A stretch of 64,000 nucleotides of DNA from an uncultured Clostridia bacterium (GTDB lineage Bacteria; Bacillota; Clostridia; Christensenellales; UBA1242), in NCBI GenBank assembly GCA_944372585.1, contig CALVZQ010000001.1:6512-70511 (forward strand). The letters are read 5' to 3'. Positions within the stretch are counted from its first letter, which is position 1; every line of letters starts with the position of its first letter. The notes under the pieces are model-generated. The model searched no databases, was not told where the DNA came from, and worked only from the letters and a program-made list of their open reading frames with translations. Both the position numbers and the translations under genes were made by a program. This document shows positions 12,994-57,358 of this stretch, one piece after another.

Positions 12994-15900
12994 TGGAAGG
13001 ACCTATCAGAAAACACCATGATTTTTTCCCTCGCATGTTTAAGGCGTTTACACTTTATTTTGTGATTACATTGTCTGTTTTCTTTGGTTATGTTCAAATT
13101 TTTGGGGACGTGAAACCAAATGTTATCACAATTCCAACAGATGGTGCTGATGCAGAAAATGATACTTTGTTTGGCAACTTTGTTGAGAAAATTGCAGAAT
13201 TTGACAACATTGACACCGATTTTGATTTGACACTGGAAAATTCTGAATTCAGTTTGTCCGCACAAGGAAATGTTGTTTACGACCTAGGCTCTGGAGATTT
13301 GTCCTTAGATGTTGATTTGATTTATAATCAACAATATTTTGACGTGCAAGTTTCTTATGTTTCTCCAAATGTCTATTTGTCTATTGACGAAAGCACCTAC
13401 AAATTTGATGCATCAGAAGATTTGGATCTAAGCAGTTTGCTCGATTTTGTGATGAACAACATTGAAATTGACACAAGTTTTATTGAAGACATTGGAAATT
13501 ATCTAGGCATTGATTTGGTCAACTTTGACCCTAATTCTTTGCTCACAAAACTTAAGATTGAAGAAAGTCAGAATGAAGAAAATGGAGAAATAATCTTTGT
13601 TATTGGACTTGGAAACAATCTCAGTGCCAGAATGGTTTGTGACTCAGAATTCAACATTAAATCAATCAAATTGAAGGATATGTTTGTTGCCGGAAGCACC
13701 GTCAAGTTCAGTGCTGATGTCAACAAAATGAACAAAGATGATGTTGTTGTCGACTATATAGAAACGGGTGATGAAGTTGACATGTCAGGAATCACTCTTT
13801 ACAAAAATTATGCAAAAAATCTGTTTGCGAATGATTTTGTGATGTCAAATGTTGCAATCAGTGTGGATAACGAGACTTATTATGCAAATGTTTATCTTGA
13901 CAACTCAAATTCTACAAAAGTGAAAATTGAAACCTCTTTAAAAGGTGTCGATGTTTCATTAGTTTATTCTGACAATGTGATTTATGTTGATGTTGCAAAC
14001 TTGAAGTTGAGTTTCAATGCTGAAGATTATCCTGTTTGGGAAGATACCATCAATGAGATCCTTGAAAAGCACACTTCAAAGACAGTTTCACAAATCGTCT
14101 CTGAATTTGTTTCACAATATGTTGGAATTGACGAAGAGGGGATTGATGGGCAACAAGTTTTGATGCAAATTTTGGGCATTGTGTTTGATAATGCCGAAAG
14201 TGTTTCTGACTATTTGCCTTCTTCAACCGAAATGACGGAAGATGCTTTTTCGATGATTTGGAACAATGGTCTTGTTATCAATTTGAATGGCGCTGACAAT
14301 CAACTTGTGGGTATAAATGTGATGTTTGACAAAGTTGACATTGACGCGAAATTTGAGATTGTCGAAAAAGGATTTGAAGTTGACGGAAATTATTATGATC
14401 TATCAAACTTGCTTCCTCTTTCAAACGTCGTAGACGAAATTTTGGGGACAAATCAATTTGGAGGTCAAGCAGGAATCACATTCAATGATTTTGTGGTTAA
14501 GGCAAATTATGTAGTTGATTTTTCAAATGGAATTCTGGCAAAGATTTCTACACAGATTTTTGGTGAAAATGTGTCAATCTATCTCAATAACAACCAAATT
14601 TTCATATCTGTTGGAGAGGTGGTTGTTGAAGGCAATATTGATGATTTGGAAAACTATATTGCAAAAATTGACAGCATTTTTGGAACAGATTTAACCAATC
14701 AAGTTGCAAGTTCTGATATTGAAGTTGGCGTTCAGGGTTTGATTGGGAAATTGTCCGAAATCTTGAACGAGTTGAAATTGGCGGAATCTGAAGGTGTTAT
14801 TGCACTGATTGAATATTTAGCAAACAAGGCATACATCTGGGTTGACGGAAACAATGTTGTATTGACTTTTGAGAACCAAACAATTTCTGCTGAAGTTTAT
14901 GTTGGAGCAACATATGAAACAATCAGTCTTCCTTCTGCAACTGACAAGACTGATGATGTCTTGAACAAGATAGAGAATGTCAAAAATTATATTGACACAA
15001 AACAATATGCTTTTGAGTTTGCTGTTTCATATGATGAAATGAATCTTTCTGGTGCCATTCAAATAGATTTGAAAAACAGTGTATTTGCGATATATGGTGT
15101 CGAAATTGGTGGAAATGAATTGGCAATCATATATTCGGACAACACTGCATATGTTGACTATGCAGGCTTGAAAATAAAATTGCAAGCAGAAAACTTGGCG
15201 CAGATTTTTGAAATAGTAAATGCAATTTTGAAAGCAAATGGAATGAATGACAATGTTGATGTTTCAGTTGCATTGACGGAAATTTTTGAGGAAAATGTTG
15301 AGGAATTATCGTTGCAAGAACTTTTATCAATGATTGAAATTGATGTTGCCGGAAGTCTTGACGAACTCAAGCTTGATTTGAAATTTGATTCGGAAAGTGG
15401 AGTTTATGCAACCGGCGATGTTGGTTTTGTTGATGATATGATTGAAAGTGTTGACTTGCTTGTCAATGAAAAAATCAGTATCAACCTCAATGTTGTTCCT
15501 TTTGAAACTTCTGAAATTTCCGATTCCGAATATTATGATTTGACAAGTGTAAACAAAGGAACTGTCACATTATCATATCAAAAAGGCGATGAAAAGGTTG
15601 ATGTTGTTGCAGATGTTGAAATTGCTTTGACTGATAAGATTTATGTTAAACTTTCAGCAAAAGTTTTAAATGAAAAATTTGAAGTTATTATCTACAACAA
15701 TATGCTCTATGCCCAAGTTGGCGATTTGTGTTTTGCAACAAACTTTGAAAATGCAAAAGAACTCTATGATTATATTGTTGATTTGTTTGCCATAGCCATT
15801 CCTGAGGTTGACATAGAAAATGTTTTGAAAGATGTTGATTTGAACCTTGTAAACATTTTTGATGTCGCAGGTTTGAGTGTTTTGGGCGACAATGAAAAGT

Positions 15901-53623: not shown

Positions 53624-53860
53624 ACAATTTTCCTCCAATTTTAATTCATATTTATTGTTCTCAAAAGACTTAAATAATATTCTCATCTTTGATTACAAAA
53701 GAATAATATCATAAATAAAAAAAAATTCCAAACGATTTGACAAAAAATTATAAAATTTTTTTTAAATATTTTTTGGAATTTTTTTATGCTATTTTAATTG
53801 CAGAAAATATTTTTTTATTAGAAAAAATGTGAACAAAAATTTAAAGCCAAAAGTTATATT

Positions 53861-54228: not shown

Positions 54229-54564
54229 ATGAATAAATTGTTGAGAATTACCGAAAGAAACAAATTTGAAATGCAAGAACTGCTTCCAAATGACAGCTGC
54301 ACCAACAAGTTGGCTTTGTATTTTCAAAATTTTTCTGACCAGACTAGAATCAAGATTTTGTCCGCTCTTTCAATCAAAGAATTGTGTGTGAATGATTTGT
54401 CAAAACTTCTTGGAATCAATCAGACTACAATTTCTCATCAACTGAAGACTTTGAAAGATCAAGACATGGTGGAATATAAGAGAGAAGGAAAGATTTTGAT
54501 TTATCGCATCAAATCTCCAATTGTCAATGAAATGATGATGTATGCTGTCAAAAGTCTATCTTAG
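54229..54564 (+). CDS. ArsR-family transcriptional regulator (no obvious metal-site Cys pair)
   Basis: FSDQTRIKILSALSIKELCVNDLSKLLGINQTTISHQLKTLKD. It has only CVN where CadC-type sensors have CVC. Confidence 0.75.
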   Translation: MNKLLRITERNKFEMQELLPNDSCTNKLALYFQNFSDQTRIKILSALSIKELCVNDLSKLLGINQTTISHQLKTLKDQDMVEYKREGKILIYRIKSPIVNEMMMYAVKSLS

Positions 54565-54746
54565 GCGAAAAACTGCACTTTGGCTCATTTTTACAAATGC
54601 AAAAAGTGTCGCAGTTACATTTGTTTTTCGCCCTTGCAACCAGACGAAAACGAACGTCGCTTTGCTTGTTGGTGTTTTGTTGCACTTTCTTGCGAAGTGA
54701 GAGCTTTTAAGAAAAAGAGAAATAGTTTCAAATAAAAGTTTTATTG

Positions 54747-56331: not shown

Positions 56332-56607
56332 ATGAACAAAGGTGAATTCGTTAAAGCAGTTGCTGAAAAAGCAAATTGCACACAAAAAGACGCTGGTATT
56401 GTTTTTGATGCTGTTATCGATACAATCGTAAGTGCTCTTAAAAAAGGAGAGAAAATTCAAATCCCTGGCTTCGGTTCTTTCGAACTCGTTTCCAAGGCTG
56501 CAACAACAAAAATCAACCCTCTCACTAAGAAACCTGTGAAGGTTGCTGCATGTAAAATGCCAAAATTTAAATTCGGCAAGAGCTTTAAAGCAGTTTTTAA
56601 TGACTGA
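56332..56607 (+). CDS. hup: DNA-binding protein HU
   Basis: MNKGEFVKAVAEKANCTQKDAGIVFDAVIDTIVSALKKGEKIQIPGFGSFE... 91 aa. Confidence 0.92.
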   Translation: MNKGEFVKAVAEKANCTQKDAGIVFDAVIDTIVSALKKGEKIQIPGFGSFELVSKAATTKINPLTKKPVKVAACKMPKFKFGKSFKAVFND

Positions 56608-56621
56608 TGAACATCTTTAGA

Positions 56622-56652
56622 AAAAACCAACATTTTGTTTGTTGGTTTTTTT
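56622..56652. terminator. bidirectional rho-independent terminator
   Basis: Stem aaccaaca/tgttggtt with flanking A-run and T-run. Confidence 0.7.
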
Positions 56653-56674: not shown

Positions 56675-56753
56675 GGCGAAAAAGCCAGACAAAATTGTCT
56701 GGCTCAAAGCCCTTCACAGGGCTTTGTTTGCACTTTTGTGCAAACTTTTCGCC
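56675..56753. other. 79-nt perfectly paired four-way-junction element (three hairpins closed by an outer stem)
   Basis: Outer stem ggcgaaaa/ttttcgcc (8 bp), HP1 agccagac/gtctggct (8 bp), HP2 aaagccc/gggcttt (7 bp), HP3 gtttgcac/gtgcaaac (8 bp). All pairs are Watson-Crick and one junction nt is unpaired. Confidence 0.7.
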
Positions 56754-56758
56754 TGTTT

Positions 56759-57358
56759 TCATTGTTCTCTAAGTTCTTTCTCCAAGTCAATAATGATATA
56801 TCCTTGAGGCATCTTGCAAAGAGGACACTCTTTGAAACTCTCTTTGGCAATGCTGACATAACCGCAAGACGAACATTTCCATTCAGTTGGATTGGTGCGT
56901 TTGTACATTCTGTTGGTTTTATAAAGTGAGGCTAGGTAATCCAAAATTTTGTGATGTGTGGCTTCAACATTGGCGACCATTTCAAAAGATTTTGCGATAT
57001 CAAGAAATCCCTCATCTTTTGCAATTCTTGCAAAACTTGGATAGATGTTATCCGCTTCTGACAATTCAATTTTGCTTTCTTCCAAAAGACTGTTTCTGAG
57101 CTCTGGTTCTTCAAAAGGAAAACCTGCTTCAATTGATATATTTTTGACACTTCCATTGCTTTTTTCGATGATGTAGTCATAAAAAATTTTGGCATGAGCC
57201 ATTTCATTTTTAGCCAAAGTCTTCATAGTGTCGGACAGAAATTGTTGGTTGTCCGCCAGTGCTTTTTTTGACATAAATTGATATCTTGCACCTGCTTGAC
57301 ATTCTGCTGCAAAAGAACGAGCCAAATTTGTTTTTGTTACGCTATCATTAAATTCCAT
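56759..57358 (-). CDS. rbr: rubrerythrin
   Basis: Diiron ferritin-like domain (ECQAGARYQF, NEMAHAKIF, EATHHKIL) and a C-terminal rubredoxin CSSCGY...CPLC. Start at the M with an AAAGGAG RBS. Confidence 0.88.
   Translation of the reverse strand: MEFNDSVTKTNLARSFAAECQAGARYQFMSKKALADNQQFLSDTMKTLAKNEMAHAKIFYDYIIEKSNGSVKNISIEAGFPFEEPELRNSLLEESKIELSEADNIYPSFARIAKDEGFLDIAKSFEMVANVEATHHKILDYLASLYKTNRMYKRTNPTEWKCSSCGYVSIAKESFKECPLCKMPQGYIIIDLEKELREQ

Follow-up and report, generated by a model that had tools for sequence, protein, structure and literature searches.

Repetitive extragenic palindromes (REP) and bacterial interspersed mosaic elements (BIME), known from enterobacteria and pseudomonads, are extragenic palindromes found just past a gene, inside operons or where two convergent genes meet. 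Transcription places them in 3' untranslated regions (UTRs); they are GC-rich compared to their surroundings, and have been proposed to stabilise the mRNA upstream and to serve as binding sites for DNA-structure proteins. BOX, Correia and other bacterial miniature inverted-repeat transposable elements (MITEs) are small, patchily distributed non-coding insertions whose terminal inverted repeats form a long closing stem around an interior that is modular (boxA-boxB(n)-boxC). The attC sites of integrons are palindromic at their ends and form a class by virtue of folded structure and not of sequence, and intrinsic terminators, including bidirectional ones, combine unique sequences with a common architecture at gene ends. 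Double-hairpin elements and GC clusters of fungal and sponge mitochondria, as outlined in PMC2800124 and PMC4478555, are GC-rich multi-hairpin modules scattered over AT-rich genomes, where they have inserted between genes and also within genes for structural RNAs. We describe here an element with likenesses to all of these, called e1, in a stretch of 64,000 nucleotides (the window) from an uncultured Clostridia bacterium (contig CALVZQ010000001.1). e1 is real, statistically extreme and evolutionarily maintained, and we tentatively read it as a REP/BIME-like palindromic element in the 3' UTR of a rubrerythrin gene, which would serve, as we infer, as a barrier to exonucleases.

A parse of the sequence resolved e1 into a perfect four-way junction of 79 nt, in which a closing stem (the clamp) encloses three hairpins, A, B and C. 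There are 31 Watson-Crick pairs and no mismatch, and the unpaired junction nucleotide is a single C at 56705, between hairpins A and B; the coordinates of all features are collected in Table 1. RNAfold added three loop-closing pairs to the 31 of the first parse, and the helices in the window are 7-9 bp long with loops of 4-6 nt. The minimum free energy calculated with ViennaRNA was -46.1 kcal/mol for the plus-strand RNA, -47.4 kcal/mol for the minus-strand RNA and -32.0 kcal/mol for DNA, with z-scores of -9.05, -8.98 and -8.44, respectively, and none of 200 dinucleotide shuffles folded as well. On either strand the four-way junction was both the minimum-energy and the centroid structure. When the whole 64 kb was scanned with a sliding frame of 80 nt, e1 was the most stable segment, and the runner-up (-28.6) was a tRNA. 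e1 is a real four-way junction with Watson-Crick pairs only. The initial annotation had described such a perfect junction, able to fold from either strand or as DNA and beginning 5 nt past the rubrerythrin stop codon. The letters are exactly as it gave them, the energies and z-scores of about -9 bear out the fold in all three forms, and the stop codon lies at 56759-56761 on the minus strand. Beyond the clamp are the tails CTTCTCC (minus strand) and TGTTTTC (plus strand). There is one copy of e1 in the window, and its hairpin arms recur solely in orthologs.

Relatives were searched with the rubrerythrin protein, taking one genome per species. The 80 syntenic loci obtained belong to uncultured gut Clostridia that are recorded under the labels Catabacter, Christensenella or Caccovivens, and a syntenic 20-kb neighbourhood per genome gave 1.35 Mb of sequence in all. 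e1 was unchanged in 10 conspecific metagenome contigs, and orthologs were present directly after rubrerythrin in five lineages (Table 1). Between the window and L011 or L211, 0.30-0.32 of the four-fold sites differ. Across the orthologs, differences were seen at 2 of 62 stem nucleotides, which make up one compensated pair in hairpin B (C-G to T-A), and all three loops differed between lineages at nearly all positions. The stems are about tenfold better conserved than synonymous (four-fold) sites, and the loops are scrambled. Pairing is perfect throughout, also where helix length varies: the clamp has 8 bp in the window, 9 bp in L011 and L012, and 11 bp in L211 and L213, with that of L211 overlapping the TAG stop codon, and the stem of hairpin A has 8, 10, 11 or 12 bp. 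The stem of hairpin C is invariant in the five lineages, with TTTT, TGCA or CGCA as the loop. The loop of hairpin B (TTCACA) is inverted between the window and L011, the two versions being reverse complements of each other in the same orientation.

The initial annotation had looked to covariation among copies as a check on function, and had taken a single-copy element lacking conservation as an argument against one. Orthologs in five lineages, and the recurrence of the architecture at other loci, are what we found. Covariation gave a divided answer. Over five close e1 orthologs there was one compensatory pair, and 102 of 500 shuffle controls did as well, a weak formal signal because the stems barely vary; other locus groups, aligned by hand, displayed two-sided changes (see below). 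In these alignments the support at the level of the e1 orthologs is differential conservation, not covariation.

The spacer between the rubrerythrin stop codon and the terminator shared with the convergent gene hup was compared among relatives. In L217 (89% rubrerythrin identity), a spacer of 41 nt is filled by the shared bidirectional terminator alone, and in L013 and L214-216 (91-92% identity) a plain second terminator stands at the place of e1. The spacer of the window clade holds the junction and about 25 nt ahead of the shared terminator, so that with respect to the sister species about 105-118 nt have been added. An apparent decayed relic follows rubrerythrin in L016 (81% identity), and the flanking gene order is identical with and without e1. 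From this comparison, e1 looks like an insertion.

e1 has every property of a class which we define by a perfect clamp of at least 8 bp, three adjacent hairpins, no more than about 4 unpaired junction bases, Watson-Crick pairs only and an intergenic position. Using hairpin-seeded scans, we found at least 8 further locus groups with the architecture of e1 and unrelated sequences among about 80 related genomes. The elements are 73-118 nt long, with a clamp of 8-14 bp, three hairpins of 5-12 bp and 0-2 unpaired bases per gap, and have a GC content of 45-66%, compared to about 35% for the genomes. A clamp enclosing at least three adjacent perfect hairpins was matched 13 times in the 1.35 Mb of relatives and never in six dinucleotide shuffles, and the same scanner run on 1.14 Mb of unrelated viral contigs gave one match, an AT-rich artefact. 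All nine runs of three adjacent GC-containing perfect hairpins were perfectly clamped, as were none of 28 two-hairpin runs; eight of the nine triple runs passed an automatic test for a clamp of at least 6 bp, the 10-bp clamp of L066 being offset by one stem mismatch. Closed junctions from a scan seeded with one perfect hairpin and completed with RNAfold were four-way in 24 cases versus three-way in 5. A covariance model built from the e1 orthologs alone and run over 91 kb with filters off placed members of unrelated sequence at the top of the ranking (E 2e-6 to 0.06); with default filters the search returned the orthologs and L086 only, because sequence filters remove the other members. The clamped runs, the junction counts and the model together show a discrete architecture. 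One end of the element lies 0-9 nt past a stop codon in seven cases and 26-36 nt past it in three.

Searches with the clamp and hairpin arms over the window and the relatives returned orthologs only. Two genomes, L069 and L086, carry two copies each that are unrelated to each other in sequence, and the class is therefore a structural one and not a repeat family. Within a clade, related clamp sequences are found at different loci (GCGCGCAA in five locus groups, and GGCGAAAA in the window). The initial annotation had proposed a search for further copies by their clamp sequence. Recurring elements do exist, both as e1 orthologs and with the same architecture at other loci, but it is architecture and not sequence that defines the family. 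At L068:7566-7654, the open reading frame (ORF) of an MFS transporter loses homology where the element begins and continues inside it up to a TAG in the loop of a hairpin, so that the element has replaced the end of the transporter coding sequence.

These properties were compared with those of the known systems. A REP is a single imperfect hairpin of 20-40 nt that occurs in tens to hundreds of near-identical copies, carries a GTAG or CGTC tag and is served by a REP-associated tyrosine transposase (RAYT). The junction elements, in contrast, have locus-specific sequence and three perfect hairpins plus a clamp, neither tag was found at their ends, and no RAYT was seen in the sampled DNA; tblastn with an approximate IS200 TnpA query found no match in the 1.35 Mb of syntenic neighbourhoods. 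We rejected e1 as a classical REP or BIME with near-identical copies, as it is single in 64 kb and the copies in L069 and L086 are unrelated. In the manner of MITE terminal inverted repeats, every member has a perfect clamp of 8-14 bp. MITEs share sequence and carry target-site duplications, whereas the junction elements share architecture and a clade-similar clamp, their interiors are unrelated between loci, and no flanking direct repeats were found at the members. The mitochondrial elements, compared here by description only, are organellar and have copies that share sequence, and a closing clamp or four-way junction is not part of their description as outlined in PMC2800124 and PMC4478555. 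A blastn search against phages and plasmids gave nothing meaningful for e1, and two scans of viral contigs with the clamps GGCGAAAA..TTTTCGCC and GCGCGCAA..TTGCGCGC yielded 240 clamp matches with no triple-hairpin junction among them; a phage or plasmid origin was rejected on these grounds. No description of such a class was found in Rfam or in the searchable literature on bacterial intergenic four-way-junction, cloverleaf or multi-hairpin elements. The class is apparently undescribed, and belongs among the extragenic palindromic elements, where its perfect four-way junction and the conservation of its shape, but not of its sequence, set it apart.

The perfection of the pairing was examined in eleven orthologous elements. 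Of 388 stem pairs, 387 were Watson-Crick, one was a mismatch and none was G-U. The G-U share in 268 terminator-like hairpins of the same loci was 7.8%, which gives a probability of about 2e-14 for 0 in 388, a count that is biased since the scanner demanded perfect seed helices. RNAfold, with G-U allowed, added 8 G-T pairs in 576, all at helix ends. Within locus groups, which were aligned by hand so that register shifts inflate some of the compensatory counts, changes were almost always two-sided, for example from GCGCGCAAGT/ACTTGCGCGC to CCGCGCAAGC/GCTTGCGCGG in a clamp, and from GTGCTT/AAGCAC to GCGCTT/AAGCGC in a hairpin 3. A stepwise path could be followed from G-C (L075) through T.C (L066) to T-A (L081). 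Whole hairpins were also swapped while their neighbours stayed unchanged (hairpin 2 of L075 versus L066 and L081, hairpin 1 of L077, and hairpin 3 of L086a).

Several members enclose or incorporate other features. At L020:6202-6296, an element of unrelated sequence after rubrerythrin, the third hairpin is a canonical A7-stem-T7 bidirectional terminator inside an 11-bp clamp, and the junction could therefore not form in the terminated transcript. In three tRNA-Glu cases (L041:344-459, L030:105-177 and L025:1369-1403) and three tRNA-Ser cases (L081:19163-19257, L067:19214-19306 and L075:17166-17240), the T-arm of a real tRNA gene doubles as one arm of the clamp. Its partner is part of the same tRNA, namely the T-arm and 3' end, copied in inverse orientation and with two perfect hairpins inserted in the copied T-loop; the arrangement is kept across species with stem changes compensated. 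Since the inverted copy in L041 lies past the terminator of its tRNA, the junction there cannot be an RNA feature. L020 and the tRNA-linked members show the junction to be a property of the DNA.

Taken with the lack of G-U pairs, the tRNA-containing clamps and enclosed terminators indicate that pairing is maintained on DNA, probably by template switching. Template switching between the arms of inverted repeats can homogenise the arms and invert the spacer, as outlined in PMC8604942 and PMC5941160, and imperfect inverted repeats are preferentially corrected to perfect ones, according to the outline in PMC5941160. Intramolecular switching would copy one arm onto the other and keep the pairs perfect, and selection against unpaired intermediates would act in addition; together, these would account for the absence of wobble pairs, in-register growth of stems, the flipped loop and the wholesale exchange of hairpins. 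Quasipalindrome correction, as those two sources present it, predicts perfect arms, spacer inversion and the multi-nucleotide one-step 'compensatory' changes seen here, and growth of stems in register is likewise among the published signatures of template switching. It is, however, a mutational mechanism and not an element, and leaves unexplained both the exclusive design of three hairpins plus a clamp and the slow rate at which the stems evolve. Since arm conversion without bias would not reduce the rate of change, selection for the paired state is also needed to account for the deficit of substitutions in the e1 stems, which is tenfold.

The same deficit bears on the view that e1 does nothing for its host and is a by-product or a selfish palindrome, either a cluster of terminator-side hairpins enlarged and perfected by template switching or the outcome of low-copy, MITE-like spread, kept in existence by a restoration process that favours perfect palindromes. 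The patchy distribution in close relatives, the decayed relic in L016, related clamps at different loci of a clade and clamps built from nearby sequence, including a tRNA gene and the 3' end of the MFS-transporter ORF in L068, agree with such an origin, as does the published correction of imperfect repeats. We think it unlikely, as apart from the slowly changing stems, the high GC content of the elements in GC-poor genomes argues for selection on stability, and the exclusive four-way architecture looks selected and not accidental.

The DNA-level evidence raises the further possibility of a DNA-structure site, folded as a cruciform or, where replication or transcription exposes a single strand, in a Holliday-junction-like form. 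A protein that binds junctions or cruciforms (HU, RuvA, RecU, gyrase) would recognise it, and it would take part in replication, the management of supercoils or the organisation of the nucleoid, much as has been suggested for BIMEs. With Watson-Crick pairs only, both strands fold equally, and the fold is stable as DNA (-32 kcal/mol, z = -8.4). The strict preference for four-way over three-way junctions would be expected if a fully stacked junction matters, the junctions of L020 and of the tRNA-linked L041 and L081 are impossible in RNA, and any recognition would have to be of shape, given that loop and junction sequences are not conserved. Extrusion of a three-hairpin cruciform from duplex DNA, on the other hand, is established to be kinetically unfavourable. 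Positive supercoiling is expected between convergent genes, and this counts against extrusion at e1. No candidate binding protein was linked to the elements, and the adjacency of e1 to hup is probably coincidental, because other members do not adjoin hup. A DNA-structure site is unlikely, to the same degree as a by-product, and these two are the serious rivals of the preferred reading. In a further reading, which we also hold to be unlikely, the elements would be a new kind of genome-encoded mimic of the Holliday junction. Shape alone would define them, as with attC sites but with four arms; correction of one arm on the template of the other would keep them perfect, and a protein specific for junctions would read them as folded DNA. 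Possible roles would be in replication, recombination or nucleoid organisation, with any RNA effect secondary.

We return to the preferred reading, in which e1 belongs to the 3' UTR of rubrerythrin. The terminator common to hup and rubrerythrin is the only one on the rubrerythrin side, and it stands 22 nt beyond e1, which itself follows the rubrerythrin stop codon. Transcription of rubrerythrin would therefore run through e1, and e1 would form the closing part of the 3' UTR. There, a junction of -46 kcal/mol would block 3'-to-5' exonucleases, as has been proposed for REP elements, and e1 would insulate the convergent genes hup and rubrerythrin from each other, without itself being the terminator. 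Our scan for terminators, which required a GC-rich hairpin and, starting 0-2 nt behind it, a stretch of 8 nt with at least 5 T, called only 56620-56652 around e1 and none of the hairpins of e1, and e1 was rejected as an intrinsic terminator. The initial annotation had held that e1 is not needed for termination of hup; a separate terminator is indeed present, and no hairpin of e1 is followed by a proper U-tract.

A compound or backup terminator of rubrerythrin, made up of the last hairpin and the T-rich clamp arm (GTCTGGCT-TTTTTCGCC, minus strand), might still be proposed, since L013 and L214 have a plain terminator at the orthologous position, T6-8 directly follows the clamp in L069b, L077 and L086a, and many of the inner hairpins resemble terminators with an A-tract, GC stem and T-tract. 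Intrinsic terminators are, however, single hairpins with a U-tract and an appreciable share of G-U pairs, whereas the junction elements usually do without the U-tract. In e1 just 4-5 T come after the last hairpin, and these are paired within the clamp; there is no T-run after the clamp in e1, L011, L012, L020, L069a, L061, L075 or L068, and the canonical terminator of rubrerythrin stands a short distance further on. We consider a backup terminator very unlikely.

The cloverleaf topology and tRNA-like size of e1, and its conservation in five lineages, would also be compatible with a stand-alone small RNA, a tRNA-like processing signal for RNase P or Z ('t-element') or a protein-binding RNA. ARAGORN and Rfam found just the two genuine tRNAs in the window and none at e1, in line with the statement of the initial annotation that e1 is not a tRNA, and we rejected e1 as a tRNA or tmRNA. 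No Rfam 15 family matched e1 at the gathering score, and what appeared at E <= 10 was noise of at most 21 bits, compared to thresholds of 55-80. No promoter belonging to e1 itself was found in the scan. None of the unpaired nucleotides is conserved, G-U pairs are absent and the two strands show no asymmetry, and helices of 7-12 bp with linkers of 0-1 nt are unlike those of tRNA. An RNA of this kind is highly improbable.

Conservation of structure without sequence, together with a patchy distribution, is also what attC sites display, and e1 might be a recombination site recognised as folded single-stranded DNA, like integron attC or the attP of CTX phage. attC sites, however, are bulged single hairpins with R and L boxes and extrahelical bases, accompanied by cassettes and an integrase. 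Inspection of the sequence and gene context of the elements revealed neither R''/R' core motifs (RYYYAAC / GTTRRRY) nor extrahelical bases, nor a cassette array, IntI or other integrase nearby, and gene order is the same with and without the element. We judge a recombination site to be extremely improbable. Among the possibilities that the initial annotation had left open, a structured 3' UTR or stabiliser and a REP/MITE-like unit fit best; a small RNA and a recombination site found no support.

Several points nevertheless weigh against a REP/BIME-like role in the 3' UTR. The RNA role of e1 is pure inference. A single GC-rich hairpin would suffice against exonucleases, and three hairpins plus a clamp are left unexplained. 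As the junctions of L020 and of the tRNA-linked members cannot form in RNA, an RNA function cannot hold for the class as a whole, and with the clamp 0-5 nt past the stop codon, the terminating ribosome would melt it. Copies within one genome share no sequence (L069, L086), unlike those of REP, BIME or MITE, and neither target-site duplications at the members nor a transposase in the sampled DNA were seen. Lastly, covariation among the close e1 orthologs is weak, and the strong compensatory evidence comes only from the other, hand-aligned locus groups.

The initial annotation had noted a second element with similar ends at 54564-54632, which we refer to as e2. The clamp pair GGCGAAAAA...TTTTTCGCC is real, with 2 matches in the window and 0 expected, but its interior is no four-way junction, and it belongs to a different family, a sequence-conserved structured repeat of ~150 nt. 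We therefore rejected this segment as a decayed four-way junction, as there is no conserved junction fold. e2 begins on the last base of the stop codon of an ArsR-like gene. We found 23 copies of the e2 type in the loci, at varied genomic positions, often directly after a stop codon and sometimes in tandem. The family has the conserved blocks CTGCRCTTTTGGCTCATTTT, AAAAGYATCGC and GCGACCAAACGAAAAYCGC, and consists, in order, of a clamp helix with covariation, the strands CTGCRCTTTTGGCTCATTTT and AAAAGYATCGC, an inner hairpin that likewise covaries and, last, a long hairpin around GCGACCAAACGAAAAYCGC. Compensatory changes were seen at 9 of 16 predicted pairs, in the clamp helix and inner hairpin, and a small number of G-U pairs point to an RNA with the same sense as the gene upstream. 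The family has no match in Rfam, and its hidden Markov model did not match e1 or the four-way-junction elements (E > 30). Common to e1 and e2 are the 9-bp clamp GGCGAAAAA/TTTTTCGCC (9+9 nt) and a short 3' flank. Local alignment of e1 (minus) with e2 (plus) scored 37, compared to 19.7 +/- 3.4 for shuffles (1/500), and consists mostly of the termini and this flank. The shared clamp may mean that e1 descended from an e2-type copy, or that the two exchanged sequence.

Other observations were made in the course of the survey. An AT-rich (24% GC) clamped triple-hairpin element lies at L072:5923-6005, and its first hairpin and the start of the next are common with L061:11333-11370, the sole sharing of a module between non-orthologous positions that was seen. 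Another type of repeat, GTCATYCTGAG...GAAGRATC, occupies the same intergenic hot spots as the junction elements (L020:6297-6350, L025:7175-7300, L033, L035:1750-1790, and L018:1552-1612 and 15055-15132); in L025 it includes tandem repeats of 24 nt, and L018 has two copies of a clamped version with two hairpins. In the window, overlapping AT-rich imperfect palindromes at 53718-53785, with arms of 29-32 nt that are 72-79% complementary, sit in a divergent region of 540 nt upstream of the ArsR-like gene; the matching region in L069, L077 and L086 has a GC-rich four-way junction and then a T-run. The window is 99.98% identical to the strain contig L001. In its segment 61905-64000, a strain-variable insertion starts at about 61950 with a serine recombinase (503 aa, minus strand), to which L001 adds an S24-peptidase repressor-like gene; the same-species contigs L002 and L003 are without the insertion and have other genes in its place. 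It is probably a prophage or an integrative element.

Table 1. Features of the window and of related loci (window coordinates unless a locus is named).
Feature	Position or loci	Strand	Basis or remarks
e1, clamped triple-hairpin element	56675..56753	none	fold, z about -9, top outlier, covariance model
Clamp 5' arm GGCGAAAA	56675..56682		pairs with 56746-56753 (TTTTCGCC)
Hairpin A AGCCAGAC-aaaatt-GTCTGGCT	56683..56704		sequence
Hairpin B AAAGCCC-ttcaca-GGGCTTT	56706..56725		sequence
Hairpin C GTTTGCAC-tttt-GTGCAAAC	56726..56745		sequence
Clamp 3' arm TTTTCGCC	56746..56753		sequence and fold
Terminator (A-tract/hairpin/T-tract) common to hup (+) and rubrerythrin (-)	56620..56652		terminator scan
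Rubrerythrin, 199 aa	56759..57358	-	PF02915
hup, HU-type DNA-binding protein, convergent neighbour	56332..56607	+	PF00216
e1 ortholog directly after rubrerythrin	L011		rubrerythrin protein identity to window 98%
e1 ortholog directly after rubrerythrin	L012		rubrerythrin protein identity to window 97%
e1 orthologs directly after rubrerythrin	L211, L212, L213		rubrerythrin protein identity to window 93%
Locus group after rubrerythrin	window clade; L020; L069a
Locus group after MFS transporter	L075/L066/L081; L068
Locus group upstream of ArsR-like gene	L069b/L077/L086a
Locus group between ArsR-like gene and queH	L050
Locus group between two co-directional genes	L086b/L077b
Locus groups at other sites	L061, L072
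e2, copy of ~150-nt sequence-conserved structured repeat	54564..54706	+
e2-type copies	L011:12661-12820; L020:6354-6500; L025:7444-7765; L035:1834-1979; L042:4234-4382		two copies in L025
e2-type copies	L027:15386-15972; L061; L067		three in tandem in L027; two each in L061 and L067
e2-type copies	L049, L053, L056, L062, L014, L022

With its natural position in a 3' UTR, a module of ~80 nt and -46 kcal/mol could serve as an mRNA-stabilising part. If our account is true, the elements offer a clean natural case in which arm correction at the DNA level, by template switching, can be separated from selection for the fold, and the contrast between stems devoid of G-U pairs and the terminators of the same genomes makes these two directly testable against each other. 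If the class is real and functional, it would represent a new architecture among bacterial extragenic palindromes, whose identity lies in shape and not in sequence. Sequence-based repeat finders and searches of the Rfam type are blind to such elements, and similar classes may therefore hide in other uncultured lineages.

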